From contig JAOPWH010000118.1 of the NCBI GenBank assembly GCA_025965795.1, forward strand, positions 5,091 through 69,090: DNA of 64,000 nt, read 5' to 3'. The DNA comes from Blastococcus sp. (GTDB lineage: Bacteria > Actinomycetota > Actinomycetes > Mycobacteriales > Geodermatophilaceae). This document shows positions 44,729 to 63,392 of the stretch, one piece after another. Under the pieces are notes generated by a model that had not been told where the DNA came from, made no database searches, and saw only the letters and a list, made by a program, of their open reading frames with translations. Position numbers and translations under genes: made by a program. How positions within the stretch are numbered: the stretch's first letter is position 1; the number at the start of each line of letters is the position of its first letter.

Positions 44729-44830
44729 TCGGTGCCACGACCGAGCCGGCCGATCTGCTGCCCCAGTGCGCTCGACGATCGATTGCCGTTCCGGATGACG
44801 CCCGCGCCTGCGGTGGCTTAACCTTGACCG

Positions 44831-45124: not shown

Positions 45125-45168
45125 CCGTCAGTACGCCCTCGCGAACCTCGTAGCCGGACCCGCGGGCC

Positions 45169-45798: not shown

Positions 45799-46069
45799 CC
45801 TTACCACTCCGTGACGATCGACCACCGCTGAACAAGAGCGACGACCACCGCCAGCCGTGGCGGATGCATGAAAGGTAGGTGCCGGCGACCGGATATCCGG
45901 CCTCCCGCGACGGGCCGGGGCGCCGCGTTCCCTAATCGTTGCGGAGGGGCCGATCGGGACCGCTGACCCGTCCCCGGACTCGTCTCCATGTCGACTCGGC
46001 CCGCCGCCACGAGCGTGGAATGCCGCGCCCCGGCATCGGTCACCCCCGGACACGCCCGGTTGCTCTGTG

Positions 46070-47017
46070 TCAGGCGCCGCCCACGACGTCCAGCGCGGCC
46101 AGCACCGTCGACCAATAGCTCTCGACATCGAGTTCTACCGCGACCCGCGCGTTGGCGTCCCTACCCCAGCGGTGGAACAGATCGACAGCAGTGGCACCTC
46201 TGGTCCATGTGCCTGCCGTCTCCACGGCCACGAAAGCGTCGACGCAGCGGACCGCCTCCGGCTCGATGAGCTGGAAGACGGCGCAGGGATCGTGGACCGG
46301 AGGTGCATCGAAATTCCAGACCCGGCTGTACGAGCTCCCGAAGAAGCCCATCCATTCCGAGGCGATGCGACCGACCTCATGGGGCAGGGCACGCATGGCC
46401 GCTACGACGTCGGGGGTGGCCAGCGCCTGGTGTGTCAGGTTGAGCCCCACCATGGTCACGGGCAGCCCCGCCGAGAGCACGACCTCGAGCGCCTCGGGAT
46501 CACTGTAGGTATTGAACTCGGCGTACGGACTGTGGTTGCCACGTTCTGTCGAGCCGCCCATGAAGACGATCTCGCGCACGCGCGGAAGGACGTCGGGCCT
46601 GTCCTGGATCAACGCTGCGACGTTGGTGATGGGCCCCGTCGCGACGAGCGTGACGGGGACAGCAGAGCCCGACAGCAGGTCCGCCATCAACTGGACGGCG
46701 CCCCGCTCGTCCACGTCGCACGCTGGGGCGGGCATGGCGGGCCCGTCGAGCCCGCTGACCCCGTGAACGTAGTTGCCCAGCTCGGCCGTACCGGCCAGCG
46801 GTCCACTGGCGCCCTGGCCGACCGGCACGTGCGTCGCCCCGCCGAGCGTCAGCACCTGCAGCGCGTTGCGAGTGGCGTCGGCGAGCGAGCAGTTCCCGAA
46901 GGTGGTCGTCACGCCCAACAGGTCGATGGACGGCGAGCCGAGTGCCAGCAGGATGGCGATGGCATCGTCGTGGCCGGGGTCGCAGTCGAGGATGATCGGT
47001 ACCGCAGTGGATGACAA
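46070..47017 (-). CDS. Inosine/uridine-preferring family nucleoside hydrolase
   Basis: DCDPGHDD, HGVSG, TGPITN, MGGS, AEFN, VHDP; TTG start after GAGGAAGG. Confidence 0.93.
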   Translation of the reverse strand: MSSTAVPIILDCDPGHDDAIAILLALGSPSIDLLGVTTTFGNCSLADATRNALQVLTLGGATHVPVGQGASGPLAGTAELGNYVHGVSGLDGPAMPAPACDVDERGAVQLMADLLSGSAVPVTLVATGPITNVAALIQDRPDVLPRVREIVFMGGSTERGNHSPYAEFNTYSDPEALEVVLSAGLPVTMVGLNLTHQALATPDVVAAMRALPHEVGRIASEWMGFFGSSYSRVWNFDAPPVHDPCAVFQLIEPEAVRCVDAFVAVETAGTWTRGATAVDLFHRWGRDANARVAVELDVESYWSTVLAALDVVGGA

Positions 47018-47030
47018 GGGTGGACCTTCC

Positions 47031-47888
47031 TCACGTCTCGGAGCGACGAAGCCGGTCGACCACGTCGACGATCGCTCGGGTGCGCTCCACGGACACGGGG
47101 GCCCACCACACGCCACCCTCCTTCATGGCGCTGCCGACGATCGCCCCGTCGGCGATGCGCAGCAGCGCATCCGCGTTGTCGGTGTCGAGGCCACTACCGA
47201 CGATGACCGGCCTGCTCGCCGAATCCGCGATCTCCTTGACCTCGGAAGGCTGCGTCGGGTCGCCCGTGCGCCGGCCGGTCGCGATCAGGACGTCGGCTCC
47301 GAACGCCTCGACGTCGTGCGTCTGCTGGGCGATGTCCCGGTCAGCCACGATCGAATGGCTTCCGTGCTTGACGTGCACGTCGGCGAAGACCACGACGTCT
47401 CGCGCGTGGATGTGGGCCCGGAACCGCAGCGCGGTCGCGGCGCTGCCTTCGACGAAGCCCTCGTTCGCGATGTAGGCGTTGGCCCACTGGTTCGCCCGGA
47501 CGAAGCGCGCACCGGAGGCCTTGGCGATCGCCAGGCTCTGCAGGGTGGCGTTCGCGAGGCACAGCACTCCGACGGGTACCGACACTGCCTCGACGACCGC
47601 CCCCGTGACGACAGACATGGCCGCGACCGTCTCCGGGCCCACGAGGTCAGGCTTGAGGAAGGGGATGTCGCCCTCGTTCTCGACGATGAGCCCGTCGATG
47701 CCGCCCTCGACGTATCGGCGCGCGTCGGCCACCGCACGTTCGACGATGGCCCGCATGCTCTGTCCGTCGTACTGTGGCGCCCCCGGCAGCGGTTCGAGGT
47801 GCACCGTGCCGATCAGCGGCTTCGCCTGGGGGAAGAGACTTCTCAGAGCATCGACGCGCTCCGGCGTCACCGGCACCGTCTGGCTCAC
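47031..47888 (-). CDS. BtpA/SgcQ-family TIM-barrel protein
   Basis: IGTVHLEPLPGAP, ENEGDIP, ADVHVKH, IATGRRTG, VGSG, AIVGS. Confidence 0.9.
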   Translation of the reverse strand: MSQTVPVTPERVDALRSLFPQAKPLIGTVHLEPLPGAPQYDGQSMRAIVERAVADARRYVEGGIDGLIVENEGDIPFLKPDLVGPETVAAMSVVTGAVVEAVSVPVGVLCLANATLQSLAIAKASGARFVRANQWANAYIANEGFVEGSAATALRFRAHIHARDVVVFADVHVKHGSHSIVADRDIAQQTHDVEAFGADVLIATGRRTGDPTQPSEVKEIADSASRPVIVGSGLDTDNADALLRIADGAIVGSAMKEGGVWWAPVSVERTRAIVDVVDRLRRSET

Positions 47889-48811
47889 GTGATCCTCCTG
47901 AGTTCGCGGGTGAGGGCAGCGCTGCGGACCAGCGCGAGCTCCGTGTCGAGTCGCTCGGTAGCCGCGAGTGCCCCCCGGGTCTCGCAGACGAAAGAGGCGG
48001 ACACGCAGCCTGAGACGGCCGCCTCGACCGGGTCGCCGGTGCGGATGAAATTGGCGAGGAAGCCACCGCAGAACGCGTCTCCCGCACCGGTCGGATCCAC
48101 GAGGTCTATCGGCACCGGCGGGACGCGGATCACGGCATCCGATACGAGGACGTCGACTCCGTCCGCTCCCCGCTTGATCACCAGCACCGGGTCCAGGCCC
48201 AGGCTGCGTAGTTCGAGGCGGAGCCGGCGAAGGTCGTCGTGACCCCAGAGGTCCCGCACTTCCTGCTCGCTCGGCAGGAAGGCGTCGACCCCTGCCAGGG
48301 CTGAACCGTCGGCGTAGGCGCTGACGTCCAGGAACGGTTCGACGAAGAGGTCAAGGGTCCTGATGCAGTCGCCGTGGCGCAGTTCATCCAGTGCCCGGCG
48401 ATGGCCCTGGCTCGTCTGGGGAGCGAGGTGGATCCCCCGGGCGCCGCGAACATGCTCGGGCAGCGCCGGTCGAGCGGCGTCCAGCTCCTGCATCGTCCCC
48501 CCGCACTGCTTCTCCAGCTGCCGGCGCCGGCCACTCGTCTCGTGGAGGAGCCACAAGCCGATGCTCGCCAGCCCCGGTGAGGTGCTGACGGCCGCGACAT
48601 CCAGGCCGGTGGCGGCGATCCGAGCGAGAAACGAAGGCGGGTAGTCCATGCCCACGGCTGCGGCGATCCCGACGTGGTCCGACCAGAGCAGCGCACCGGT
48701 CGCGCTGTAGAGCGCGCCGCCCCCTGGCTGCTTCCAGTCGCTGCCCACGTCCTCGATGATCACGTCGTCGATGGTCAGCTCACCGACGGTCGCGACGTCC
48801 AGGCCCGTCAC
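47885..48811 (-). CDS. PfkB-family carbohydrate/nucleoside kinase
   Basis: PGGGALY, IKRGADG, DPTGAGDAFCGG; GTGA overlaps. Confidence 0.9.
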   Translation of the reverse strand: MTGLDVATVGELTIDDVIIEDVGSDWKQPGGGALYSATGALLWSDHVGIAAAVGMDYPPSFLARIAATGLDVAAVSTSPGLASIGLWLLHETSGRRRQLEKQCGGTMQELDAARPALPEHVRGARGIHLAPQTSQGHRRALDELRHGDCIRTLDLFVEPFLDVSAYADGSALAGVDAFLPSEQEVRDLWGHDDLRRLRLELRSLGLDPVLVIKRGADGVDVLVSDAVIRVPPVPIDLVDPTGAGDAFCGGFLANFIRTGDPVEAAVSGCVSASFVCETRGALAATERLDTELALVRSAALTRELRRIT

Positions 48812-49566
48812 TCGGGCGCCGCGAGCTCGACGTGGTACTCGTACCGGTCCCCTGCGAAAGTCATGACGGAGTACTCGACCGGCCGCTGGCCGGAGCTGAA
48901 CGCGGTTCGGCGCACGAGCAGGGTCGGGTCTCCTGTCCGACACTCGAGGAGGCGAGCCTCCGGCTTCGTCGCCACGGCTGCGCGAATCGTCTCGACGCCG
49001 TGGACCAGACGCAGACCGATCTCCGGTCCCTGGAGCACCTCGTACAAGGACGCAGACACCAGCGACTCGGCGGAGAAGAGATGGAGGCGGCCCTTCAGCA
49101 CGTCGACCGGCAGCCAGGTCTTGGCGATCGCGATCGGCCGGTCGTCAGCGAGCAGGAGCCGCTCGATGCCCTGGCAGTCACCCCGCGGAAGGCGCAGCGC
49201 GGAACGGACCTCGTCATCCGGGGTCACCACGCCCGAACGCAGCAGCCTGCGGTGCGGCCGGAACCCCTGCGCCCGCATGTTCTCGGTGAAGGAGTTGAGC
49301 AACGTCTTGTGAGTGGGACGCGGGCGTGCCACGAACGAACCGAGGCCCTGGATTCGTTCTATCCGCCCCGCGGCGACCAGCCTGTTGAGCGCCGTCCGGA
49401 TCGTCGCCCGGGACACGAGGTACTGCTCCTCGATCTCCGCCTCGCTCGGCAGGCGGTCGCCAGGCTTGAGCCCTTCCTCGCGGATCCGCTCGAAGAGCAC
49501 GTTCTCGAGCTGGACGTAGAGCGGGAGTGGTGAGCTTCGGTTCACCACCGCTGACATGTCGTTCAC
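48808..49566 (-). CDS. GntR-family regulator, HutC/UTRA subfamily
   Basis: PLYVQL, LPSE, VSRATIRTAL, GLGSFV; UTRA C-terminus. Confidence 0.93.
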   Translation of the reverse strand: MNDMSAVVNRSSPLPLYVQLENVLFERIREEGLKPGDRLPSEAEIEEQYLVSRATIRTALNRLVAAGRIERIQGLGSFVARPRPTHKTLLNSFTENMRAQGFRPHRRLLRSGVVTPDDEVRSALRLPRGDCQGIERLLLADDRPIAIAKTWLPVDVLKGRLHLFSAESLVSASLYEVLQGPEIGLRLVHGVETIRAAVATKPEARLLECRTGDPTLLVRRTAFSSGQRPVEYSVMTFAGDRYEYHVELAAPE

Positions 49567-49596
49567 CGGGTCCTCGTCGTTGGATGCACGACTGCG

Positions 49597-50001
49597 TCAG
49601 ATCTGCTCGGTCGTACCCGGGAGAGGTGGCAGGGAGACATGCGCGCTGACGATCCGCCATGAGCCTTCGAGCCGTACCCACACCTGCGTCTGACGGCCCA
49701 CTTGCGCCGCGTTCTCTTCTTCGTACTCGGTCACGGCGAGGCCGGTGTCGGCACCGAACGTCGTGATTCTGGTCCTGTGCAGCCGGCGCTGCGAAGCGGG
49801 TGGCCGGCCGCGCCGGTACTCGGCGATCGCAGCCCACCCGTACAGGTTCTCGAGTACGCCGAACCGAACCGTGGCGTCGTCGTCCCAGAAGAAGCGGTTC
49901 AGGGCGTCTACGTCGTTGGCCATCAACGCGGCCTCGTACTCACGGAAGGCCGCTGTGACCTCTCGGACGACGTCCGGACGATCGACCTCGCTGAGCATCA
50001 T
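49597..50001 (-). CDS. AtzH/HpxZ-like (DUF3225) protein
   Basis: VTAAFREYEAALMAND, RFGVLENLYG, GRQTQVW, WRIVSAHVS. Confidence 0.88.
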   Translation of the reverse strand: MMLSEVDRPDVVREVTAAFREYEAALMANDVDALNRFFWDDDATVRFGVLENLYGWAAIAEYRRGRPPASQRRLHRTRITTFGADTGLAVTEYEEENAAQVGRQTQVWVRLEGSWRIVSAHVSLPPLPGTTEQI

Positions 50002-51395
50002 GACTGTTCCCCTGTCGTCGATCCGGCGATCTCGAGCGCCCGGGCGACGCGGAAGAGCGCGGCCTCGTCGTAGGGCCGGGCCACGAGCTGAACACCCACC
50101 GGTAGGTCGCCCGGCCCGCGCACCGGAACGCTCAGGGCCGGCAGCCCGACGAAGGCCCAGGGCTGGGCCAGCAGTCCGAGGTTCGCACCGATGGACAGGT
50201 CCTCGCCGCGGACCCGCAGGAACCGCTCTCCCACCCGGGGCGCCGTGCAGGGCGTGGTCGCCATGACGAGCACGTCGACGTCCTCGAAGACAGTCCGCAC
50301 CGCCTCGCCGTAGTGGCGACGGAAGCGCTGCGCGGCCAGATAGTCCACTGCGGGCACCAGTGCGCCGGCGAGAAGCGCCGGGCGCACTGCCGGGTCGTAG
50401 TCCCGCGCTCTCGTCCGCAGACGCGTGAGATGGCGTTGCCCCGCCTCAGCGGAGGTGATCACCGACGACGCCCCGCAGGCCTGGGCCGTGCCGGGGACAT
50501 CGACCGTCCGACGGACGTCGAGCGGTCGGAGGGCCGCCTCGACCGCAGACATCACCTCGTCACCGGCCACCTCGGTGAAGTGGCCACCGGCCATCGCCAG
50601 CCGCAACCCGTCCACTCCCCTGTCCATCTGTGGGAGGCACGCTTCCGGGGTGCCGGGAGCCGACACGGGATCACGATCGTCCGGCCCGGCGAGGGCGTCG
50701 TACGCCGCGGCCAGGTCGTGCGCCGTCGACGCCAACGGACCGACGTGGTCGAGGCTGGTCACGAACAGGGTGGTGCCGGTTCGCGACACCCTCCCGAAGG
50801 TCGGCTTGAGGCCGAAGACGCCGCAGAGCGAGGCCGGGACGCGGATCGAGCCGTTGGTGTCGGACCCCAGGGCGAGCGGGACCAGCCCGGCAGCCACGAC
50901 CGCCGCCGAACCACCCGAGGATCCGCCGGCCAACCGATCGGTGTCCCGAGGGTTGCGCGTCGTGCCGTGGTGGGCGTTCTCCGTCGTGAAGCCGTGCGCG
51001 TACTCGTCCATGTTCGTGGCGGCGACGACCACGGCGCCGTGGTCGCGCAGCCGCCGGACGGCACTCGCGTCCGCCGCCGCCGGGCCGCGCTCGGGCTCGA
51101 TGAGCGACCCGGCCCGGGTGCGATGCCCCTGCACGTCGAACAGATTCTTCACGGCGAAGGGCACCCCCGCGAGAGGGCCGGGGTCACGACCGTCCCGGAC
51201 GAGGGCGTCGACGCGGGCGGCGTCCTCGAGGGCCCGGTCCAGGTAGACGTCGGTGACGGCGTTCAGCACCGGGTCGTGCTCCTCGATCGACCGGACCGTC
51301 CGGAGGACGACGTCCACAGCCGTGGTGCGGCCGTTGCGGACCGCGTCGGCGGTCCGGATGGCAGACATCCCGGTCTCGGCGGCGACCACCGTCAC
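49998..51395 (-). CDS. AtzE/HpxY-like amidase-signature enzyme
   Basis: AVKNLFDV, NMDEYAHGFTTEN, GGSSGGS, GSDTNGSIRVPASLCG. Confidence 0.9.
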   Translation of the reverse strand: MTVVAAETGMSAIRTADAVRNGRTTAVDVVLRTVRSIEEHDPVLNAVTDVYLDRALEDAARVDALVRDGRDPGPLAGVPFAVKNLFDVQGHRTRAGSLIEPERGPAAADASAVRRLRDHGAVVVAATNMDEYAHGFTTENAHHGTTRNPRDTDRLAGGSSGGSAAVVAAGLVPLALGSDTNGSIRVPASLCGVFGLKPTFGRVSRTGTTLFVTSLDHVGPLASTAHDLAAAYDALAGPDDRDPVSAPGTPEACLPQMDRGVDGLRLAMAGGHFTEVAGDEVMSAVEAALRPLDVRRTVDVPGTAQACGASSVITSAEAGQRHLTRLRTRARDYDPAVRPALLAGALVPAVDYLAAQRFRRHYGEAVRTVFEDVDVLVMATTPCTAPRVGERFLRVRGEDLSIGANLGLLAQPWAFVGLPALSVPVRGPGDLPVGVQLVARPYDEAALFRVARALEIAGSTTGEQS

Positions 51396-51598
51396 GGCCG
51401 GAACACCGCCGCCGGCTCCTCGGCCGGGTCACCGAGCTGGGCCGCGAAACCCCGCAGGACATCGACGTAGGCGACGACGGCTTCCAGATCCTCGGCCGGC
51501 ACGACGAGACCGAGGGCAGCAGCCGCCTGGCCGACCGCAGCCCGCGACGACGGCTCCGGCCCGGCCGGGGACGGTGACGTGATGGGGGCGCCGCTCAT
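51392..51598 (-). CDS. AtzG/HpxX-like (DUF4089) small amidase partner, 68 aa
   Basis: AAAALGL...EPAAVFRP C-terminus; overlaps both neighbours by 4 nt. Confidence 0.78.
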   Translation of the reverse strand: MSGAPITSPSPAGPEPSSRAAVGQAAAALGLVVPAEDLEAVVAYVDVLRGFAAQLGDPAEEPAAVFRP

Positions 51599-52908
51599 CG
51601 CGACGGCTCGTAGGGGACGCCGTCCGCCGCCGGCGGGATCGCCCGTCCGATCGCACCGGCGAGGACGACGACCGTGACGACGTACGGCAGGGCCTGCAGG
51701 AACTGGCTCGGAACCGGGAACCCGCTGACCTCGACGCCCAGCAGCTGGATCCGGCTGCCGAGAGCGGCCGAGAAACCGAAGAGCAGCGCACCGCCGAACG
51801 CCGGCCACGGACGCCACTTGCCGAAGATGAGAGCGGCGAGGGCGATGAACCCCGTCCCGTTCGTCATGAGGTCCTCGAAGGACCCCACGGTCTCCAGGGT
51901 GAACCAGGCACCGGCGAGGCCGGCGATCAGCCCGCCGAGGACCACCGACTGGTAGCGGATGCGGACGACGTTCACCCCCAGCGTCTCGGCCGCGTGCGGC
52001 TTCTCCCCTACCGAACGAACCCGGAGTCCCCACGTCGTGCGGAACAGCACGACCCTGCTGAGGAGCACGACGACGAACATCGTGAAGAAGATCGGCTTGC
52101 CGACGAAAAGTGTCTGACCGACGACGGGAAGGGAGGAGAGGAAGGGGATCTTGATCGCTGACAGAGTCACGCCGGTGCCGACTCCGAGCGGCAGCAGCAC
52201 CTGGCGCCGAAGGAAGCTGGTGATGCCGATGGCCAGGAGGTTGATGGCGACGCCACTGATGATCTGGTCGGTGCGGTAGGTGACGCAGAGGACCGCGTGC
52301 AGCAGGCCCAACAGCCCCCCGACGCCGATCGACACCAGGACCGCCACGATCAGCCAGGGACCCCCGGCTGCTCCGGCGACCAGCGCGTAGAACGTGAAGC
52401 CGATGCCCGCCGACGCCAGCATCATCCCCTCGATGCCGATGTTCACGACCCCCGCCCGCTCGCACCACAGTCCCGCGAGCGCGCCGAGGGCGATCGGCGT
52501 CGACAGGCGCAAGGCCTCGGTCAGCAGCGGGAGGAGATTGGTCTGCGTGACGTTGCCCAGCGCCACGCTCAGGATCAGGATCAGCGGAACCGCGAGGACG
52601 GCCGCCCCCACCAGCGCCACCGTGGCGTACCGCCCTGTCCAACGGTGGGCCAGCGCCACGCCGCCGGCGACGAAGTACAGGAGTGCGATCGTCAGAACGG
52701 CGTTCGGCGGGTCCACCGGGATGCGGGGGGCCAGGTCGCCCAGGCCGAAGACCAAGGTCACGTCCTCGACCGGCACGTGTCCGGAGATCCAGACCAGGGA
52801 ACCTCCCAGGAGGAGGAAGAACAGTCCGAGACTCTGCAGACGGACCGACGCCCTCGCCGGTACGTTGCGAGCCGGAGCCGGCCGCCCGGGCAAGTCCACC
52901 GTGGCCAT
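51595..52908 (-). CDS. Nucleoside-type ABC transporter permease
   Basis: ERAGVVNIGIEG, GEKPHAAETLG, GFIALAALIFGKW, ALPY. Confidence 0.92.
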   Translation of the reverse strand: MATVDLPGRPAPARNVPARASVRLQSLGLFFLLLGGSLVWISGHVPVEDVTLVFGLGDLAPRIPVDPPNAVLTIALLYFVAGGVALAHRWTGRYATVALVGAAVLAVPLILILSVALGNVTQTNLLPLLTEALRLSTPIALGALAGLWCERAGVVNIGIEGMMLASAGIGFTFYALVAGAAGGPWLIVAVLVSIGVGGLLGLLHAVLCVTYRTDQIISGVAINLLAIGITSFLRRQVLLPLGVGTGVTLSAIKIPFLSSLPVVGQTLFVGKPIFFTMFVVVLLSRVVLFRTTWGLRVRSVGEKPHAAETLGVNVVRIRYQSVVLGGLIAGLAGAWFTLETVGSFEDLMTNGTGFIALAALIFGKWRPWPAFGGALLFGFSAALGSRIQLLGVEVSGFPVPSQFLQALPYVVTVVVLAGAIGRAIPPAADGVPYEPSR

Positions 52909-54051
52909 CTACCCGGCCCATCCTCTCGAGAAGGTCGCCGGCCCGCCGTCCACTGCGCCTCGCGGCGCCCTGATCCGGAACAGCTTGCGCACGATGGCGT
53001 CGGCAGCCACGAACAGGATGATCAGCGCCTGGACGATCCGGACCAGATTCACCGACAGATCGGCCTCCACCTGCATGAGCGGCGCCCCGGAGAGCAGCGC
53101 CCCCCAGAGGAGAGCCGCAGGCACGACGGCCAGCGGGTTGCCGCGCGCCAGGAGGGCGATCGCGATCGAGTCGAAGCCGATGTTCGTGAACGCGCCGGGA
53201 GTCAGGTAGCCGGAGCTTCCGCCGATGACCTCGGCGGCGCCGGCGATCCCCGCCAGCGCGCCTGAGGCCGCCATGACCACGATGATCGTTCGCTGCACCG
53301 GCATGCCTGCGTAGAGCGCGGCGTCCTTGTTCGCACCCACCGTGCGGATCTCGAACCCGGGTGTGGTCCGTTTCAGGAAGAGGTACGTCGCGACGCAGAG
53401 CGCCAGAGCCAGCACGATGCCGAGATGGAGCCCCGTTCCCGTGACGAGGGCGGGCAGTCTCGCAGAGTCGGCGACGAGCCGGGTGTGCGGCGTCGACGCC
53501 GCCTGGTCGATGAGGAGGATCGGGTCGCGCGAGGTGATCAGGTACGACGCGAAGGCGGCGGCGATGCTGTTGAGCATGATCGTCGTGATGACCTCATGGG
53601 CACCTGTCTTCGCCTTGAGGACGCCCGGTATGCCGCCCCAGACGAGCCCTCCGAGCGTGCCGGCGAGCAGGACGACGGGCACGGCGAGGACGGCGGGCAG
53701 CCCCGCTAGCCAACTCCAGGTCCCGACCCACGCCGCTGCCAGTGCTCCGAGGAGTAGCTGACCTTCGGCGCCGATGTTGAACAGGCCGGCCTTGAAGCCG
53801 AGTACCACGGCGAGGGCGCCGATGATGAACGGTGTGGCGCGTCCGATGGTCGTCGCGATCCGGTCGGGACTGCCCAGGGCGCCGTCGAAGAGGGCGGCGT
53901 AGGCGGTGAGGGGGTTCGACCCCGCACCGATGATGAAGACGGCGCCCACCAGACTCGCGATGAGGATGGCGTACAGCGGCACCGTCACCGGCGCGAGACG
54001 GAAGTAGCGCTCCAGCGATCGGCGCCCGAAGGACTGGGAAGGCGGGGTCAT
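52909..54051 (-). CDS. Nucleoside-type ABC transporter permease
   Basis: GLFNIGAEGQ, HEVITTIMLN, GFDSIAIALL. Confidence 0.92.
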   Translation of the reverse strand: MTPPSQSFGRRSLERYFRLAPVTVPLYAILIASLVGAVFIIGAGSNPLTAYAALFDGALGSPDRIATTIGRATPFIIGALAVVLGFKAGLFNIGAEGQLLLGALAAAWVGTWSWLAGLPAVLAVPVVLLAGTLGGLVWGGIPGVLKAKTGAHEVITTIMLNSIAAAFASYLITSRDPILLIDQAASTPHTRLVADSARLPALVTGTGLHLGIVLALALCVATYLFLKRTTPGFEIRTVGANKDAALYAGMPVQRTIIVVMAASGALAGIAGAAEVIGGSSGYLTPGAFTNIGFDSIAIALLARGNPLAVVPAALLWGALLSGAPLMQVEADLSVNLVRIVQALIILFVAADAIVRKLFRIRAPRGAVDGGPATFSRGWAG

Positions 54052-55607
54052 CCGGTCGCTCCTCCCGCCATCAGGAGGCCGACCGTGTCGCGATCGGCGT
54101 CGCCGCGGTCCATGACCGCCGCGAGGGTGCCGCGGTACAGCACCCCCACCCGATCGGACAGTGTCAGCACCTCGTCGAGTTCTGCCGACACCAGGAGCAC
54201 GGCGACCCCGGCATCCCGGCGGTCGACGATCTGTCGGTGGATGAATTCGATGGAACCGACGTCGAGGCCGCGCGTGGGCTGCGCGACGAGGAGCAGCCGG
54301 ATGTCGCCGGAGAGTTCGCGGGCCATCACGATCTTCTGCTGGTTGCCACCCGACAGCGTGGCGGCGTCGACCTCGGTCGAGGGCGTCCGGATGTCGAACT
54401 CGGCGACGAGGCGCTGCGCGTGCTTGCGCATGACGGCCCGGTTCATCAACCACCGCCGGGAGAAGCGACGGCTGTGGTACCGGTTCAGCACGAGGTTGTC
54501 GGTGATCGAGTAGACGCCCACCAGCCCGTGCTTGCCACGGTCCTCGGGCACGTGCCCGACACCGAGATTCTCGACGTCCCGCGGAGAGCTGTGGGTGGTC
54601 TCCGTGCCGCAGATCCGAACCGTGCCCGACTGCGGGGTCCGCATGCCGGCCAGCGCCTCGACCAGTTCGCGTTGCCCGTTGCCCTCGACGCCGGCGATGC
54701 CGACGATCTCGCCTGCGCGCACGACCAGGTCGAACCCCGCAACCGTGAGGTGACCGCGGTCGTCGGCCACGTGCAGGTCCTCGACCTCGAGGACCGCGGC
54801 GCCGGGGCTCACCGGAGCCTTCTCGATCTCGAAGCCGACGTCCCGGCCCACCATCTCCCGGGCCAGCCCCTGCTCCGTCGCGCCTTCCACCACGGTCGAG
54901 GACACGACCCGCCCGGACCGCATGATCACCACGGTGTCCGCGACGGCCAGGACCTCGCGGAGCTTGTGGGTGATGAAGATGACGGACTTGCCCGAGTCGA
55001 CGAGGCTCCGGACCACGCCGAAGAACTCGACCACCTCCTGCGGGGTCAGCACCGCCGTGGGCTCGTCCAGGATGAGGATCTCCGCGTCGCGGTAGAGCGC
55101 CTTGACCAGTTCCACCCGCTGCTGGGCGCCCACCGACAGTTCACCGACGACGGCGTCCGGATCGACGTCGAGTCCGTACTTCTGCGACAGCCGGCGGACG
55201 TTTCGCCGGGCGGCCTCGATGTCGAGGAACGGGCCGCGCCGCTCCTCCTTCCCCAGGACCACGTTCTCGGCGACCGTCATCACGGGCACGAGCTGGAAGT
55301 GCTGGTGCACCATGCCGATGCCGTGACGGATGGCATCGGCCGAAGAGCCGAACGAGACGGCTTCCCCGCGGACCCGTACGACACCCTCGTCAGGTCGGTA
55401 GAGCCCGAAGACGACGTTCATCAGGGTGCTCTTGCCCGCACCGTTCTCGCCCAGAAGGCAGAGGATCTCGCCTTCGTGCAGCGTGAGATCGACGTCGGCG
55501 TTCGCCGTCACTCCGGGAAATCTCTTGGTGATGCCCTCCAGTTCCAGCACCGCGGCGCGTGGGCGGGCGTGGTTCGAGGGCGCGATCTCGTTCATGTCCG
55601 TCATCAA
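54048..55607 (-). CDS. ABC transporter ATPase (CUT2, tandem domains)
   Basis: GENGAGKST, MVHQHF, LDEPT, LSGGNQQK, QPTRGLD. Confidence 0.94.
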   Translation of the reverse strand: MMTDMNEIAPSNHARPRAAVLELEGITKRFPGVTANADVDLTLHEGEILCLLGENGAGKSTLMNVVFGLYRPDEGVVRVRGEAVSFGSSADAIRHGIGMVHQHFQLVPVMTVAENVVLGKEERRGPFLDIEAARRNVRRLSQKYGLDVDPDAVVGELSVGAQQRVELVKALYRDAEILILDEPTAVLTPQEVVEFFGVVRSLVDSGKSVIFITHKLREVLAVADTVVIMRSGRVVSSTVVEGATEQGLAREMVGRDVGFEIEKAPVSPGAAVLEVEDLHVADDRGHLTVAGFDLVVRAGEIVGIAGVEGNGQRELVEALAGMRTPQSGTVRICGTETTHSSPRDVENLGVGHVPEDRGKHGLVGVYSITDNLVLNRYHSRRFSRRWLMNRAVMRKHAQRLVAEFDIRTPSTEVDAATLSGGNQQKIVMARELSGDIRLLLVAQPTRGLDVGSIEFIHRQIVDRRDAGVAVLLVSAELDEVLTLSDRVGVLYRGTLAAVMDRGDADRDTVGLLMAGGATG

Positions 55608-55630
55608 GCGGTGCCCGTTCCTCGGGGGCC

Positions 55631-55668
55631 GTCACGGGGGCGCGGTGATCGCTGCGCGCCCCCGTGAC
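55631..55668 (-). terminator. Intercistronic hairpin after the binding-protein gene
   Basis: Perfect 14-bp inverted repeat GTCACGGGGGCGCG/CGCGCCCCCGTGAC. Confidence 0.7.
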
Positions 55669-55675
55669 CGGCGAC

Positions 55676-56845
55676 TTACTTGGGCTGACCGGTGATGGGA
55701 TCGACCGTCGTGTCGATGCTCCCGTCAGCCAGGCCCTTCCGGACCTCCTCGAGCTTCTGGCTGACATCTGCCGGCACCTTCGCGTCGTGCGCAGGCGCGT
55801 AGGTGATGCCGTCGTTCTCCGCCGTCAGCTGGAAGACGCCGCCCTTGAAGTCTCCCCGGATCGCTGCGGCGATCTGGCTGAAGACGCCGAGATCGACGCG
55901 CTTGACGGCCGACGAGGCGATGCGGTCGGCGCCCTTGGCGGACCCGCTGCCGAAGATCGTGGCGTACTGGTCCTGGTCGACTCCGATGGCCCACGAGCCT
56001 GCCTCCGCGGCAGCGCGCACCCCTCCGGAACCGGTGATGCCGCCTGCACCGAAGATCACGTCAGCACCTTCGCCGAGCATCTGAGTGGCATCGGAGGCGC
56101 CCTTGGCCGGGTCGTCGAAGGAGGAGTTGTAGACCTTGAGAACCTGGATGTCCGGATTGACCGACTTGGCCCCGGCCTCGTACCCGTTCACGTACCGGAC
56201 GACGGGCGGGACGTCCTCGCGTCCGGCGACGACGCCGATGGTGTTGGACTCGGTCAGCAGCCCCGCCAGCGCACCGGCGAGGTAACCGCCCTGGTCCTCG
56301 CGGAACAGGATGCCCACGTAGTTGTCGGGATAGGACGCCTGGAACTGGTCGATCCCGACGAACTTCGTGTCCGGGTTCTTCGTCGCGAAGGTGAGGGTCG
56401 CGTCGGCGAGGAGGAAGCCGGTCGAGATGACGACGTCCGGCTTGCTGCTGAGGATCGTCGTGAGGTTGTTGTTGTAGTCGGCCTGGTTCGCCGTCTCGAT
56501 GAAGTCGGTCTTGATGCCGAAGCACTTCTCGGCGGCCTTGAGACCTTCGTACGCGAACTGGTTGAAGCTTCCGTCGGTCACCGTCCCGACGTCGGTCACC
56601 AGTCCGGCGGTGAAGCCGGCGGGCGCCTTGACGTCGGAGTAGTCGCTCTTGCACAGCTCGTCGAGCGTCACCGCGGCGGACACCTCGCCGCCCGCGGACG
56701 GCGAGGAAGACGCCGAGCTACTGCTCGTACTACTGGGCTCCGCCGTCTTCGTCGCGTCGTTGCCACACGCGGAGGCGAGCATGGCGAGACTGAGTCCGAC
56801 CGTCACACCCCAGCGTGATCGGATCGGGGTTCGGGTGGAGTGCAC
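55676..56845 (-). CDS. BMP/PnrA-family nucleoside-binding lipoprotein
   Basis: ASAC lipobox; DGSFNQ, FREDQGGYLAG, AIGVDQDQ, SAVKRVD. Confidence 0.92.
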   Translation of the reverse strand: MHSTRTPIRSRWGVTVGLSLAMLASACGNDATKTAEPSSTSSSSASSSPSAGGEVSAAVTLDELCKSDYSDVKAPAGFTAGLVTDVGTVTDGSFNQFAYEGLKAAEKCFGIKTDFIETANQADYNNNLTTILSSKPDVVISTGFLLADATLTFATKNPDTKFVGIDQFQASYPDNYVGILFREDQGGYLAGALAGLLTESNTIGVVAGREDVPPVVRYVNGYEAGAKSVNPDIQVLKVYNSSFDDPAKGASDATQMLGEGADVIFGAGGITGSGGVRAAAEAGSWAIGVDQDQYATIFGSGSAKGADRIASSAVKRVDLGVFSQIAAAIRGDFKGGVFQLTAENDGITYAPAHDAKVPADVSQKLEEVRKGLADGSIDTTVDPITGQPK

Positions 56846-56929
56846 GTCGTGGTCCTCTCGTTCGACAGGTCGCAAGACGCCTCTGATCCCTCGTCGCGCC
56901 GGGAGGCCGATCCGCGATTGACTGGTGCA

Positions 56930-56958
56930 GTTAACATGACAACCTCACGACCTGACAA
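56930..56958. promoter_or_regulatory. Putative HutC/GntR operator in the divergent promoter
   Basis: Imperfect palindrome GTTAACATGACAAC and repeat ACATGACAA/ACCTGACAA; TTGACT just upstream. Confidence 0.5.
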
Positions 56959-56972
56959 GGAGGTGCGGGGCG

Positions 56973-57788
56973 GTGTCGACTCGATCACTGGGGGAGCTCA
57001 GCTGGGTCGACGTCCACCAGGTCGCGCAGGCGATGCCGCTCGTCGTGCTGCCCATCGGCGCGGTGGAGCAGCACGGACCGCACCTGCCCCTTCTCGTCGA
57101 CAGCATCGTCGTGGAAGCCATCGCGGCAGAGGTCTCAGTGCGCACTGGGGTGGCAGTGGCTCCGACGTTCTCGTACTCGTCGTCCCAAGGACACAGCAGC
57201 GTCTTCCCGGGCACTCTCGCACTGTCCCCTCGCACGACGGAACGGGCATTGGCCGAGATCAGCCGGTGGTTGGTGAACGCCGGCTTCACCCGACTCTTCC
57301 TGCTCAACGGGCATCTGGGCAACACCGGCGTCCTGTGGAACGCGGTCGACAACCTGATCGCGGAGCTCAGCCCGCGGGTGAGCATCGCCGGGCACAGTTG
57401 GTGGGACGTCGACAGCGAGCTGTGGTCGCAGGTCACAGCGGACGTGCCCGGCAGCCGTGGGGAGTTCCACGCGAATCTGGCGGAGACGGCGCTGATGCTG
57501 CATCTGCGACCCGACCTGGTGAGGATGGACCGAGCCGTCGACCAGCCGGAGGCCGCCTGGGCGTTCGCCTACGACATGAGCCGCAAATCCGAGTCCGGCG
57601 CCATCGGCCGATCGATCACCCAGGCCACACCGGAACTCGGGCGGCACCTGTTCGAACAGGCAGTGGCGGCCGTCACCGCCCTGGTCCACCGCATGCTGGC
57701 GGAAGCGCCGCCGGCGGCTCCTGCTGGCGACATCGGCGACTGGCGGGATACCGCGGTCCGTCGAATCACTTCACAGGAGGAAGGTTGA
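56973..57788 (+). CDS. Creatininase-family amidohydrolase
   Basis: GAVEQHGPHLPLLVD, FPGTL, NGHLGN, HANLAETA; AGGAGG RBS. Confidence 0.92.
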   Translation: MSTRSLGELSWVDVHQVAQAMPLVVLPIGAVEQHGPHLPLLVDSIVVEAIAAEVSVRTGVAVAPTFSYSSSQGHSSVFPGTLALSPRTTERALAEISRWLVNAGFTRLFLLNGHLGNTGVLWNAVDNLIAELSPRVSIAGHSWWDVDSELWSQVTADVPGSRGEFHANLAETALMLHLRPDLVRMDRAVDQPEAAWAFAYDMSRKSESGAIGRSITQATPELGRHLFEQAVAAVTALVHRMLAEAPPAAPAGDIGDWRDTAVRRITSQEEG

Positions 57789-57792
57789 TCTG

Positions 57793-58503
57793 ATGGAACA
57801 TCGTCCCCGGTACGCGCTGATACCCGGCGATCCCTCTCGCGTCCATCGACTGCTCGACCAGCTGGACGGCTCGGCCGTGGTCGACGGGCCGTCATACCTG
57901 GTGGAGGGAACCGGCACCGTCTCCGGCGAGCCGGTCCTGGTGGCGGCGACCGGGATGGGTGGCCCCAGCGTGGTCGAGACCGTCCGGCGGCTGGCGGACC
58001 GGGGCGTCGACACGTTCATCCGCGTGGGTGGAGCAGGTCCGGTCGCCGACCACGTCACGGCCGGGGACATCATCGTCGCCTCGGCCGCCGTCCGGCACGA
58101 GGGCGCGTCCCGCTCGCTGCTGCCGCCGTCGTTCCCGGCGGTCGCGGACCCAGGGGTGACCGAATCGCTGCTGGCGGCAGCCCTCGAGCGACGGCCGCAG
58201 GCGCTCTGTGGGGTGGTCCACACCAAGGACTCGTTCTTCGGTGAGGTGGACCCGGCCAGCAGTCCTGTCGAAGGGGAACTCCTTGCGGCCTGGCACGCGT
58301 GGCAGCGGCTGGGTGTCCTGGCGAGCGAGATGGAGGCTTCGGTCCTGTTCTGCCTCGCCCTCCGGGAGGGGCTGCGCGCGGGAACCGTGCTCAAGGTGAA
58401 CGCGATCGGGGACCACGCCGCTGAAGCGTGGCGCGACGACGTGGACCTGTGCCGGATCGCCGTCGACGGACTGGCCCGACTGATAGGGATCGACCGTGGC
58501 TGA
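57793..58503 (+). CDS. NP-I (uridine phosphorylase-like) subunit A; retains cis catalytic motifs
   Basis: PGDPSR, TGMGGPS, IRVG, PAVAD, EME; lacks N-terminal YH and REY. Confidence 0.85.
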   Translation: MEHRPRYALIPGDPSRVHRLLDQLDGSAVVDGPSYLVEGTGTVSGEPVLVAATGMGGPSVVETVRRLADRGVDTFIRVGGAGPVADHVTAGDIIVASAAVRHEGASRSLLPPSFPAVADPGVTESLLAAALERRPQALCGVVHTKDSFFGEVDPASSPVEGELLAAWHAWQRLGVLASEMEASVLFCLALREGLRAGTVLKVNAIGDHAAEAWRDDVDLCRIAVDGLARLIGIDRG

Positions 58504-59155
58504 GCTCTATCACCTGGGCGTGGACGTCGAGGCCGTCCCGTCACAGGTCCTCCTGGTGGGCCCCGACTTCCCGCTCACGGACCTGCTGTCGCGGTGGGAC
58601 GCCGTGTCGCTCGTCGCCAGGCGGGAGTACTCGTCACACCTGGTCGAGCGCTCGGGACGGCGGATCCTGGTCGTGCGGGTCGGAGTCGGCGCTCCACCAC
58701 TCGCCATCGCGCTCGAGGAGCTGTCCCGGGCGGGTGCGTCCACCTTCATCCTGGTGGGGACGGCGACCGGCATGTCAGCGCCCGAGCTCCCCTTGGTGCC
58801 GACCGGAGCCGTGCGGGGTGAGGGCACGAGTGACCAGTACGCACCGATCGCCTATCCCGCAGTCCCCGACGCACCCCTGCGAGCCCGTCTCGGCCGGCAG
58901 CTGGGCAGCAGCGGGGTCGCGGCCGGCCTCGTCCGCTCGGTGGACGTGGTCGAGCCGACCGACCAGCATCCGCTCGTCGCGGCCACGGACATGCTCTGTG
59001 CCTGTCTCTTCGTCGTGGCCGCTGCCAGGCAGGTGCGCGCGGCCGCGGCCGTCGTCGATACCGCTGCGCCGCCGGCCATGACCTCCGCGGTCGCCGAGGC
59101 GGCATTGCAGACGCTCGTCACCGACCGCCTCGACGAGGGAGGACGCCTTTCATGA
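58496..59155 (+). CDS. NP-I (uridine phosphorylase-like) subunit B; retains only trans motifs
   Basis: YHLG, RREY, AIALEEL, RGEGTS, YPAVPD; lacks GDPxR, RVG Arg and EME. Confidence 0.8.
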   Translation: MAELYHLGVDVEAVPSQVLLVGPDFPLTDLLSRWDAVSLVARREYSSHLVERSGRRILVVRVGVGAPPLAIALEELSRAGASTFILVGTATGMSAPELPLVPTGAVRGEGTSDQYAPIAYPAVPDAPLRARLGRQLGSSGVAAGLVRSVDVVEPTDQHPLVAATDMLCACLFVVAAARQVRAAAAVVDTAAPPAMTSAVAEAALQTLVTDRLDEGGRLS

Positions 59156-59937
59156 CCGACACCGCGCCCACGCCGCTCAAGGGTTCGACCGGCCGGCAGT
59201 ACCACATCAAAGTGGCCCCGGGCGAGGTCGGAGGCGTCGTCCTGATGCCGGGCGATCCGTTCCGCGTGCAGCTCATCGCCGATCGGCTCGAGGACGCGGT
59301 GGAGGTCGCCCACGCTCGCGAGTACCGCACGGTCGTCGGCACGTACAAGGGAAGGACGGTGGCGGCCACCTCGACGGGCATCGGTTGCCCGTCGGCGGCG
59401 ATCGCCGTCGAGGAGCTGGCGAGGTGCGGGGTGCACACCTTCATCCGTGTGGGCAGCACGGCCGCGCTGCAGGACCACGTCGCCGTCGGCGACCTCGTGG
59501 TCAATACCGGCACCTACCGCAACGACGGCACGTCACTTGCGTACGCGCCGCTCGGCTATCCCGCGGTGCCCGACACGGAGCTGACGATGTCGCTGTTGAC
59601 CGTCGCCCGGGAGCACGCCGCCTCGGCCGGGACCTCGGTCCACGTAGGGATCAACGTGTCCGACGACGCGTTCTACGCGGAGGGTCCCGAGTGGATGGAA
59701 AGGATGACCTCCTTGGGGCTGCTCAACGTCGAGATGGAGAGCGCGGCCATCTTCACCGTCGCTCGCCTTCGGGGGCTGCGCGCGGGCATGGTCTGCGGTG
59801 TCTCCGGCAATCTGGTGACCGGGGACGCCCCCTACGGGGGAGACCACAACGCACGACTGGCGCGCGGCTGGGAGCAGAGCATCGACATCGCTCTCGAGGC
59901 GGCCCATCGCCTGGCGCCGGTTCCCCAGGCCGGGTAG
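59152..59937 (+). CDS. Nucleoside phosphorylase (NP-I), complete motif set
   Basis: QYHI, PGDPFR, AREY, STGIGCPS, IRVGS, VEME. Confidence 0.92.
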   Translation: MTDTAPTPLKGSTGRQYHIKVAPGEVGGVVLMPGDPFRVQLIADRLEDAVEVAHAREYRTVVGTYKGRTVAATSTGIGCPSAAIAVEELARCGVHTFIRVGSTAALQDHVAVGDLVVNTGTYRNDGTSLAYAPLGYPAVPDTELTMSLLTVAREHAASAGTSVHVGINVSDDAFYAEGPEWMERMTSLGLLNVEMESAAIFTVARLRGLRAGMVCGVSGNLVTGDAPYGGDHNARLARGWEQSIDIALEAAHRLAPVPQAG

Positions 59938-59941
59938 CGCG

Positions 59942-60922
59942 ATGATCGGGCTCAGGATGAACCTGCACACCCATCTCGAGGGTTGGTTGCGTCCGGCGAC
60001 CGCGCGTGAGCTGGCCCACGCGAACGGTGTTCCCAGCCCGCCGCAGGGCTGGGAGGCCGCCCTGCGGATGCCGTCCGCGGGCACCCTGACCGACTATCTC
60101 GCGCACGTCGCGGCCGCCTATCCCGTCCTCGGGCACGCCGGGGCCCTGACCCGCGTCACCCGCGAGGCGGTCGAGGACGCGGCCGCCGATGGCACCGCCT
60201 TCCTGGAGCTGCGCGCCGGACCCACCACCCATGTACGGGCCGGCCTGTCGCTGGACGCCGTCGTCGACGCCATGTGCGCAGGTCTGGCCGAGGGAGTTCT
60301 CGGAACCGGCATGCCGGCTGTCCTCGTCCTGGCGGTCCTGCGCGAGTTCGACGAGGAGGCCGCTCTCGAGGTCGTCGAGTCGGCGATCCGTCATCAGGAC
60401 GTCGGCGTGGTGGGCGTGGACCTCGCCGGGGACGAGGCCCGGTACCCGGACCTCAGGCGCTACGCCAAGGCGTTCGCCCGGGCGCGGTCGGCGGGCCTGG
60501 GGGTCACGGCTCACGCCGCCGAAGCCGCAGACGCGTCGGCGGCTCGACAGGCGCACGAGCTTCTCGGCGTGCACCGGATCGGACACGGGAGCCGAGTGGT
60601 TCTCGATCCGGAGGAACTGTCCTGGGCGGTCGACAACGGCCTCTGCTTCGAGGTCTGCCCCACCTCCAACGTCCTGACCGGCGCGGTGGGAACACTCGCC
60701 GAGCACCCCCTCGCTCCGATGCTCGCGGCGGGCGCGCGAGTCGTGCTCGGTGACGACGACCCGGTGACCACCGGCGCGCCGCTGTCCCACGAGCGCCGGC
60801 TGGTCACCGAAGGGATGGGGCTGGACCGGGGCCGGCTGCAGGCCATGAGCGACGCCGCCCTCGATGTCGCCTTCTGCTCCGATGCGGTCAGACGGTCCCT
60901 CCGCGAGGCCGGCGCCGGCTGA
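59942..60922 (+). CDS. Adenosine deaminase-family protein
   Basis: NLHTHLEG, DLAGDE, HAAE, RIGHG, EVCPTSN, DDDP. Confidence 0.9.
   Translation: MIGLRMNLHTHLEGWLRPATARELAHANGVPSPPQGWEAALRMPSAGTLTDYLAHVAAAYPVLGHAGALTRVTREAVEDAAADGTAFLELRAGPTTHVRAGLSLDAVVDAMCAGLAEGVLGTGMPAVLVLAVLREFDEEAALEVVESAIRHQDVGVVGVDLAGDEARYPDLRRYAKAFARARSAGLGVTAHAAEAADASAARQAHELLGVHRIGHGSRVVLDPEELSWAVDNGLCFEVCPTSNVLTGAVGTLAEHPLAPMLAAGARVVLGDDDPVTTGAPLSHERRLVTEGMGLDRGRLQAMSDAALDVAFCSDAVRRSLREAGAG

Positions 60923-61010: not shown

Positions 61011-63392
<2,382 letters not shown>

Follow-up and report, generated by a model that had tools for sequence, protein, structure and literature searches.

A candidate catabolic divergon for a nucleoside-class compound in Blastococcus sp.

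Which compound is taken up and broken down by a divergon of 16 genes in a 64,000-nucleotide stretch of Blastococcus sp. DNA (contig JAOPWH010000118.1), and what do its enzymes contribute? This whole stretch, with a GC content of ~72%, is referred to here as the window. The divergon comprises 11 left-arm genes on the minus strand and five right-arm genes on the plus strand, and for two of the enzymes encoded, the BtpA barrel and the creatininase-like hydrolase, no part in nucleoside metabolism has been described. The answer favored here, with modest confidence, is a horizontally acquired catabolic locus for a nucleoside-class compound, most likely purine- or guanosine-like, that is probably controlled by a GntR regulator of the HutC type. 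No published description of this gene combination was found in the literature. The cluster is not categorically new, being a distinct, rare variant of a recurrent, uncharacterized type of nucleoside locus, with a logic related to that of archaeal pentose bisphosphate pathways.

Genes were called from the GC content of third codon positions (GC3) and from frame, and the products were then scanned against Pfam and NCBIfam. In order of transcription, the left arm encodes a Bmp lipoprotein, a tandem ABC ATPase, two BPD_transp_2 permeases, an AtzG-like open reading frame (ORF), AtzE, an AtzH-like protein, a GntR+UTRA regulator, a PfkB kinase, BtpA, and an IU-type nucleoside hydrolase. The right arm encodes a creatininase-family hydrolase, three PNP_UDP_1 paralogs of the NP-I family (NP1, NP2, and NP3), and an A_deaminase protein. 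A first-pass annotation of this DNA had proposed a locus for import and breakdown of a non-standard nucleoside; the scans recovered every gene family that it named, and both these families and the conservation of the two arms support import and breakdown of a compound of the nucleoside class.

Conservation, control, and origin of the two arms

Neighborhoods were compared for all orthologs of the creatininase-family gene that lie on sufficiently long contigs, and genes of both arms occur together in 9/9 such loci. The complete divergon, with order and orientation unchanged, is present in genome G343, from another family of the same class, at 60-83% amino acid identity, and on L178, one of three contigs of metagenome-assembled genomes (MAGs) that carry the divergon. 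As far as the other two contigs reach, L092 has the whole left arm and the creatininase gene in the same arrangement, and L089 has ATPase-Bmp facing creatininase-NP1-NP2-NP3-deaminase. More distant members (55-60% identity) are rearranged. L176 carries a single co-directional operon, GntR-PfkB-BtpA-NP1-NP2-creatininase-Bmp-ATPase-permease-permease-NP3; L177 has GntR followed separately by BtpA-creatininase-Bmp-NP1-NP2-ATPase-permeases-PfkB-BtpA; and L090 and L091 have a reduced set, BtpA-PfkB-creatininase-Bmp-NP. Gene content that is kept despite shuffled order indicates functional coupling of both arms, and the two arms form one unit.

The notion that these are two unrelated back-to-back operons sharing no function draws on their opposite strands and on the non-nucleoside contexts of out-group creatininases. 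It is already contradicted by the synteny data, with both arms' genes co-occurring in all nine loci, merged into co-directional operons in L176, L177, L090, and L091, and flanking a conserved intergenic element, and its probability is put close to nil. The first-pass annotation had counted a lack of joint conservation of the two arms among the things that would speak against its reading; synteny and the intergenic element both show the arms to be conserved together.

Comparison of the versions separates an invariant core, consisting of the HutC-type GntR, the Bmp-ABC importer, the creatininase-family hydrolase, the NP1/NP2 pair, PfkB, and BtpA, from an accessory set assigned to the full version, namely the AtzG/E/H trio, the adenosine deaminase-type enzyme, NP3, and the IU-nucleoside hydrolase. 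With the accessory set, the pathway is proposed to reach as far as the release of nitrogen. The earlier description was right about the families and about their forming a unit, and overlooked both the conserved PfkB-BtpA module and the division into core and accessory genes.

The GntR protein combines an N-terminal GntR winged helix-turn-helix with a C-terminal UTRA domain, which places it in the HutC subfamily, and no complete version of the cluster lacks a regulator of this type. The 97-bp divergent spacer contains an element of ~28 bp (56931-56958) that ends just upstream of the ribosome-binding site of the creatininase gene and recurs in the orthologous spacers of L092 and L089. A degenerate pattern for it, TGWCAACCTNNCGWCCT, occurs in only 3/171 loci (the window, L092, and L089), and once in the window. 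This element is a candidate operator of the HutC-type regulator, and the divergon is probably under the control of its own GntR. At L090:7489-9096, the HutC-type regulator (GntR+UTRA) and BtpA were called as one 535-aa product, which could be a regulator-enzyme fusion or could reflect read-through or a gene-calling artifact.

With the most plausible starts, neighboring cluster genes overlap by 4-8 nt or are separated by 0-30 nt, the exceptions being the 68 nt that follow Bmp and the divergent spacer of 97 nt, in agreement with the earlier remark that most genes overlap or abut. A by-eye impression that third codon positions are less GC-rich in the cluster was likewise confirmed by calculation, with a mean GC3 of 0.864 for the 16 cluster genes versus 0.913 for 28 other window genes (Mann-Whitney p = 1e-4). 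One of the genes used in that by-eye comparison was misnamed, the right-flank gene called hrpA being a UvrA-like ABC ATPase instead.

Orthologs of the creatininase-family gene were found in 1/400 genomes sampled evenly from the class and in 0/157 other genomes of the window's own family. An AtzH-like gene above cut-off was found in 0/24 other genomes of the genus. A DNA-level search with the whole cluster in 40 relatives, 24 of them from the same genus, returned only generic fragments of the ABC ATPase, amidase, NP3, and hydrolase genes, and DNA-level synteny of the cluster is absent from these 24 same-genus genomes. The tallies include two unpublished genomes, G015 (same genus) and G031 (same order), both contributing negative counts only. 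A pattern-based search for related loci with the creatininase gave no match, and protein searches did recover orthologs. The nearest AtzE relatives in a per-species collection come from cyanobacteria and proteobacteria, at 50-59% identity. Around the cluster, no tRNA, integrase, or flanking direct repeats were found as signatures of mobility; no sigma-70-like promoter matches were found, and terminator-like matches fall within coding regions. Taken together, the rarity, the AtzE relationships, and the lower GC3 suggest a rare, acquired accessory locus of horizontal origin, which is kept together in a few soil-type actinobacteria.

A patchy distribution, actinobacterial origin, and unusual enzymes could also be expected of a cluster that makes a nucleoside antibiotic or confers self-resistance to one, and the flanking UvrA-like ABC ATPase is of a type sometimes tied to drug resistance. 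This possibility is highly improbable given a lipoprotein binding protein, importer-type permeases, and a HutC-type catabolic regulator, together with enzymes that are only hydrolytic or phosphorolytic. No glycosyltransferase, methyltransferase, aminotransferase, radical SAM, or NRPS/PKS genes were found in the locus, and the UvrA-like gene is not kept with the cluster in G343, L089, and L178.

Import and the base moiety

The Bmp lipoprotein substrate-binding protein, two BPD_transp_2 permeases, and tandem ABC ATPase constitute the gene set of a PnrA/Bmp-type importer. In fold family, a lipobox (L-A-S-A-C) after a hydrophobic stretch, two permeases, and a tandem ATPase, the system resembles PnrA, BmpD, and Lbp lipoproteins with NupABC-type transporters. 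The closest solved relative of the cluster Bmp is Lbp (7X0R, 181 bits), which was crystallized with guanosine in its pocket (PMC9601137); PnrA/TmpC reaches only 120 bits. In syntenic loci, the permeases are 72-86% identical and the ABC ATPase 72-79% identical. Bmp identity is just 33-37% in distant versions of the cluster, and its ligand may differ there. By family and by analogy, the Bmp-ABC system would import a nucleoside-class compound.

All three NP-I paralogs are closest to uridine phosphorylase (UP), and all fall short of the uridine phosphorylase model TIGR01718 (cut-off 280), with 221.3 bits for NP3, 170.1 for NP1, and 81.9 for NP2. The NP1+NP2 pair is present in G343, L089, L176, L177, and L178. 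NP1 and the very diverged NP2, often without a Pfam match, lie adjacent in every cluster version (window 57793-59155; L176:2590-3977; L177:4203-5538), and in L089, NP2 and NP3 were called as one 442-aa product. Aligned with E. coli UP, NP3 retains Arg30, Arg48, Arg91, Thr94, and the E-M-E-S motif of the phosphate/ribose site, has Gln166 replaced by Gly, Arg168 by Glu, and Arg223 by Leu, and lacks the specificity insert. These three residues bind uracil in the E. coli enzyme. NP3 is thus predicted to be catalytically active as a phosphorylase but on some base that is not uracil, since the phosphate/ribose residues are kept and the uracil-binding ones replaced. Paralogs of NP3 with 63-69% identity are present in same-genus genomes that do not have the cluster.

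The nucleoside hydrolase is closest to the NCBIfam models UriH and RihA, at 311 and 307 bits, below the cut-offs of 450 and 433, and has orthologs in L092 and G343 at 60-72% identity. The deaminase exceeds the cut-off of the adenosine deaminase (ADA) model TIGR01430 (249.6 > 216.55), a family assignment made from sequence only; its best match in the PDB is adenosine deaminase 6N9M (155 bits), and it is 70-73% identical in G343, L089, and L178. An enzyme of halophilic archaea annotated as Udp is a proven guanosine phosphorylase, operonic with a PfkB-type ribose-1-phosphate kinase (PMC9700705). The substrate scaffold is most likely purine and guanosine-like, by analogy, because Lbp holds guanosine, the deaminase is of ADA type, and Udp-annotated phosphorylases can be guanosine phosphorylases.

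Ordinary scavenging of canonical nucleosides, such as guanosine, adenosine/inosine, or uridine, would draw on some of the same evidence, with a deaminase that passes the adenosine deaminase equivalog and a closest solved Bmp relative that is guanosine-bound. It is nevertheless judged unlikely, if to be taken seriously. None of 157 other genomes of the family has the cluster, though these organisms presumably use canonical nucleosides too, the three NP-I paralogs, the hydrolase, and the kinase all stay below equivalog cut-offs, and NP3 is without the uracil-binding residues. A non-standard substrate, for which the first-pass annotation gave oxidized guanosine products, methylated nucleosides, and a triazine nucleoside as examples, is no more than plausible.

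PfkB, BtpA, and the ribosyl moiety

The first-pass annotation had listed PfkB and BtpA correctly and assigned them no role, and both turn out to be part of the invariant core and to form a widespread pair. BtpA exceeds the cut-off of its subfamily model TIGR00259 (224.8 > 153.4) and stays below that of the equivalog for photosystem I biogenesis, the cyanobacterial BtpA (184 < 400). It is present as a single copy in the cluster's genome (G000, a MAG-like assembly in 317 contigs, 88% complete). Across 33 sequences, from actinobacteria to archaea, mean column identity is 63%, and 38 columns are invariant, many of them charged residues, together with a G-S-G loop. Invariant residues include H30, E70, N71, D74, R131, E143, R155, R157, D170, K174, H178, D183, and D199. 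A search of PDB sequences with BtpA gave no match, and full-text literature searches found no biochemical function for BtpA/SgcQ.

AlphaFold (AF2) models BtpA as a (beta/alpha)8 barrel (pLDDT 90.5). Nearest to it in fold, with TM scores of 0.52-0.66, are HisF, HisA/PriA, ThiE, KDPGal aldolase, NanE, hexulose-phosphate synthase (HPS), and IGPS. BtpA is predicted to be an enzyme for a phosphorylated substrate because these nearest folds are all phosphate-binding barrels; the fold does not reveal the reaction.

PfkB is translationally coupled to both GntR and BtpA. Its best relative in the PDB is 3kd6, at only 63 bits, and its best NCBIfam model is ribose-1-phosphate kinase (NF053626). Among the 80 BtpA loci closest to that of the window in the per-species collection, a gene for this type of PfkB lies within 8 kb in 30 and directly adjacent in 24; other neighbors are a HutC-type GntR (38 loci), a CUT2-type ABC ATPase (60 loci), and Bmp (only two loci). 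The PfkB-BtpA pair recurs across bacteria and archaea, and in the present cluster it would most likely handle the ribosyl moiety or a ribosyl phosphate.

Three other loci illustrate the settings in which the pair occurs. A Caldarchaeum MAG (L143:2768-14487) has an independent nucleoside cluster with two PfkB-BtpA pairs, an NP-I protein, an IU-nucleoside hydrolase, a cytidine deaminase, a DeoC-like aldolase, and a Bmp-ABC importer. In Arthrobacter (L095:3386-11538), a HutC-type GntR, a sugar-type binding protein (Peripla_BP_4), and an ABC system accompany a 375-aa protein, PfkB, BtpA, and a TAL/FSA-type aldolase, and Mesorhizobium (L100:3204-12288) has the same HutC/sugar-type ABC/PfkB/BtpA set with an M20-like protein and an amidase. 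The module common to the latter two includes an M20/M28-like protein, followed by either the TAL/FSA-type aldolase or the amidase, and suggests a sugar-conjugate substrate.

Routing of nucleoside ribose through a phosphorylated intermediate would resemble the archaeal pentose bisphosphate pathways, known from Thermococcus and, in the non-carboxylating form, from halophilic archaea (Sato et al. 2022, PMC9700705). Unlike in these pathways, no isomerase of the ribose 1,5-bisphosphate (R15P) isomerase family (IF-2B, PF01008) was found in G000, and the cluster is without RuBP phosphatase, Ru1P aldolase, and glycolaldehyde reductase; BtpA would take the place of these enzymes. The host is a bacterium, and its locus has a Bmp-ABC importer, a creatininase-like enzyme, a deaminase, and the ureide trio in addition. 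A phosphopentomutase of the DeoB type was not found in G000 either.

Ring opening, nitrogen release, and the proposed route

The creatininase-family protein matches PF02633 over its full length (residues 8-238). Glu34, His36, Asp45, His120, His178, and Glu183 (1J2T numbering), the binuclear metal ligands and the catalytic His, are identical in the cluster enzyme, and none of these positions varies among 16 sequences from the orthogroup and its out-group. In these positions and in fold family, the enzyme is like creatinine amidohydrolase of Pseudomonas putida (1J2T), MftE, ArfB, and IolN. Unlike creatinine amidohydrolase, MftE, and IolN, it falls below the equivalog cut-offs, with 145.3 bits against creatininase model TIGR04448 (cut-off 235), 116 against MftE (172), and 64 against IolN (245). 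It also differs from 1J2T in belonging to a separate orthogroup and in having Leu, Gly, and Arg in place of Tyr121, Glu122, and Trp174, the creatinine-contacting residues. The position aligned with Trp174 varies within the orthogroup (Arg, Asp, or Glu), and a conserved pocket Arg was rejected on this ground as a hint of an anionic substrate.

The orthogroup comprises ~44 sequence clusters at at least 55% identity, mostly from Nocardioidaceae MAGs and metagenomes, with next relatives at 46% or less. Its members were found only in nucleoside loci, beside Bmp, NP-I, PfkB, and BtpA; the nearest out-group creatininases adjoin amino-acid, peptide, or amine genes, not nucleoside genes. Kept catalytic sites, failed equivalog cut-offs, changed contact residues, and unrelated out-group contexts together define a predicted function-specific orthogroup.

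The three genes between the permeases and the regulator form the second part of this side of the cluster. AtzE exceeds the cut-offs of NF006631 (599.7 > 461) and TIGR02715 (572.3 > 425.75), and the AtzH-like protein that of the HpxZ "oxalurate catabolism" equivalog NF033625 (153.7 > 135). For the 68-aa AtzG-like ORF, the sole Pfam match is PF13318, at a sub-threshold 14.1 bits (19.4 for the G343 ortholog; cut-off 24); the ORF is 46-60% identical in L092, G343, and L178 and always lies directly upstream of AtzE. By family, the trio would hydrolyze carboxylated ureides, and the NCBIfam names of its models refer to the breakdown of oxalurate and of cyanurate. In Pseudomonas sp. ADP, AtzE-AtzG-AtzH hydrolyze 1-carboxybiuret and 1,3-dicarboxyurea, and HpxXYZ belong to a purine cluster of Klebsiella. 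With the candidate AtzG-like ORF counted in, the G-E-H order is the same as in these systems, whose curated models AtzE and the AtzH-like protein pass. Unlike in the Atz and Hpx systems, no AtzD, AtzF, or HpxW is adjacent, and the trio lies within an operon for nucleoside import, with 4-nt overlaps. The more distant cluster versions do not have it, and within the genus comparison it is present only in G000. This weakens the earlier case for a non-standard nucleoside, made from the joint presence of a cyclic amidohydrolase and a ureide amidase, as the trio fits HpxZ and AtzE models, is accessory, and is missing from distant versions.

Mineralization of cyanuric acid or s-triazines of the Atz type would make the trio act on 1-carboxybiuret from an AtzD-family hydrolase, with the nucleoside genes a separate matter. 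The passing AtzE and AtzH-like models, the AtzG-like match as the only one for the small ORF, and AtzT, a Bmp-family protein known from the atrazine system (PDB 6PI5), are all compatible with this, and a gene of the AtzD/TrzD/barbiturase family does exist at C282:6714-9104 of G000 (L173, 494 bits), with another in G343. The explanation is very improbable because the G000 gene lies on another contig among unrelated neighbors and its family is core to the genus, being present in 14/14 high-quality genus genomes and 0/14 control genomes, whereas the trio occurs only in G000; a link between the two was rejected for this reason. The embedding of the trio in a nucleoside operon argues against it as well, and no allophanate hydrolase (AtzF) above cut-off was found in the genome. 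The AtzD-family gene adjoins a gene of the amino-acid-kinase family. A Bosea locus (L014) was rejected as evidence for AtzE/H-BtpA linkage, the genes being 5 kb apart with unrelated ORFs between them.

Ordinary scavenging, as weighed above for the base, could be extended so that the creatininase-like enzyme and the HpxXYZ-like AtzG/E/H proteins finish a purine-ring catabolism, for example of oxalurate-type ureides, begun by the uricase pathway elsewhere. Elsewhere the genome does have a uricase/OHCU decarboxylase/malate synthase locus, many molybdo-hydroxylases, and an Ldh_2 (AllD-like) protein, and the HpxZ and AtzE models are above their cut-offs. This extended form remains as doubtful as the simple one, since no HpxW-type (GGT) gene was found in the genome, and the creatininase-family enzyme is part of the invariant core although, to our knowledge, the family plays no part in the breakdown of canonical purines or pyrimidines. 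Neither textbook pathway, cyanurate or oxalurate, is evident around the trio, and its most plausible substrate is a product of this cluster.

Under the favored reading of a catabolic divergon, the Bmp lipoprotein and ABC system would import the compound, the adenosine deaminase-type enzyme would take off an exocyclic amine, and NP1/NP2, NP3, and the IU-hydrolase would cut the N-ribosyl bond to give the base and ribose-1-phosphate or ribose. PfkB and BtpA, to judge from their conserved pairing and the BtpA fold, would convert the ribosyl phosphate toward central metabolism along lines like those of the archaeal pentose bisphosphate routes, BtpA taking the R15P isomerase step or a later one. The creatininase-family hydrolase would open or deacylate a cyclic amide or amidine of the base or a base-derived product, and in the full version the AtzG/E/H-type trio may then free ammonia and CO2 from the resulting carboxylated ureide.

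Several points weigh against this reading. The fold matches of BtpA are generic for its superfamily (TM at most 0.66), and PfkB reaches 52.3 bits against the ribose-1-phosphate kinase model, whose cut-off is 330. Most other BtpA-PfkB loci have sugar-type binding proteins, not Bmp, so the substrate of BtpA need not be ribosyl, and neither an aldolase nor another evident enzyme for an exit after BtpA was found in the cluster. DeoB, R15P isomerase, AtzF, and HpxW may lie in the missing part of a genome that is 88% complete, and Actinobacteria may use a PGM-type pentomutase instead of DeoB. Ring opening may precede or follow deribosylation, and the ~28-bp element is no more than a candidate binding site of the GntR regulator.

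A different order of events is conceivable as a long shot, in an undescribed route for a riboside with a five-membered cyclic amide or guanidine base, such as hydantoin- or parabanate-type oxidized-guanosine products. The creatininase-like enzyme would open the ring to a ribosyl-ureide, PfkB would phosphorylate this ribosyl-ureide, BtpA, with its modeled fold nearest HisA/PriA, would act on the N-(5-phosphoribosyl) bond by Amadori-type isomerization or cleavage, and the HpxXYZ-like trio would mineralize the released oxalurate-like ureide. If true, this would be the first biochemical function for BtpA and a new enzyme class.

BtpA/SgcQ proteins are widespread and highly conserved in cyanobacteria, enterobacteria, actinobacteria, and archaea, and the catabolic divergon favored here sets BtpA in a small coupled gene set of importer, regulator, kinase, phosphorylases, and one hydrolase, a compact and testable system for its reaction. 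It also defines a creatininase-family orthogroup restricted to nucleoside loci and gives the AtzG/E/H trio a new setting, apart from triazine clusters and purine clusters of the Klebsiella type. Should a modified or damaged nucleoside be the substrate, the locus would show how soil actinobacteria recover nitrogen from compounds of this kind; with a canonical purine nucleoside, it would be a bacterial counterpart of archaeal pentose bisphosphate logic with a different enzyme.

Table 1. Genes of the divergon and the intergenic element, in window coordinates
Feature	Coordinates	Strand	Family match or occurrence	Place in the cluster
IU-type nucleoside hydrolase	46070..47017	-	PF01156, 314 bits	Accessory; last left-arm gene
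BtpA/SgcQ-family (beta/alpha)8 barrel	47031..47888	-	PF03437, 242.8 bits	Core
PfkB-family kinase	47885..48811	-	PF00294, 91.5 bits	Core
HutC-subfamily GntR regulator	48808..49566	-	PF00392, 59.3 bits; PF07702, 101.7 bits	Core
AtzH-like/HpxZ-type protein	49597..50001	-	PF11533, 160 bits (cut-off 27)	Accessory
AtzE-family amidase	49998..51395	-	NF006631, 599.7 bits	Accessory
Candidate AtzG-like small subunit, 68 aa	51392..51598	-	PF13318, sub-threshold	
Perm2 (BPD_transp_2)	51595-52908	-	PF02653 (113 and 128 bits for the Perm2/Perm1 pair)	
Perm1 (BPD_transp_2)	52909-54051	-	PF02653 (113 and 128 bits for the Perm2/Perm1 pair)	
Tandem-domain ABC ATPase of importer	54048..55607	-	Two PF00005 domains	
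Bmp/PnrA-family lipoprotein substrate-binding protein	55676..56875	-	PF02608, 178 bits	Core
Conserved ~28-bp intergenic element	56931..56958	.	Same element in L092 and L089 spacers	
Creatininase-family metal amidohydrolase	56973..57788	+	PF02633, 211.9 bits	Core; first right-arm gene
NP1 (NP-I paralog)	57793-58503	+	PF01048, 97 bits	Core
NP2 (diverged NP-I paralog)	58496-59155	+	PF01048, 30 bits	Core
NP3 (Udp-like nucleoside phosphorylase)	59152..59937	+	TIGR01718, 221.3 bits (cut-off 280)	
Adenosine deaminase-type amidohydrolase	59942..60922	+	PF00962, 228 bits	Accessory; last right-arm gene

Some starts in Table 1 differ from those of the longest ORFs. The likely start of the nucleoside hydrolase is TTG 47017 (315 aa), its longest ORF extending to 47116, and that of PfkB is GTG 48811 (308 aa), shorter than the longest ORF. 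The longer PfkB frame (region 48811-48943) would overlap the 3′ end of GntR by 135 nt, and tblastn matches span this overlap in L092 and L178; the GTG start gives a 4-nt overlap with GntR, agreeing with the L178 gene call. For Perm1, ATG 54051 has GGAGG upstream and overlaps the ATPase stop.

The right-flank gene (61011-63392) encodes a shortened UvrA-like ABC ATPase of 793 aa, a UvrA paralog with 692.8 bits against TIGR00630 (cut-off 729.8) that is not kept beside the cluster in G343, L089, and L178. On the left, a minus-strand ORF at 45169-46128 (319 aa) matches no family, has a GC3 lower than anywhere else in the region (0.80), and runs into the end of the nucleoside hydrolase gene; neither in G343 nor in L092 does a counterpart lie beside the cluster, and the ORF may not be a real gene. 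Further left of the cluster, inside an ORF at 44524-45153 without a family, lies a near-perfect palindrome (44673-44713) with 19-nt arms that are 95% complementary and a 3-nt loop.

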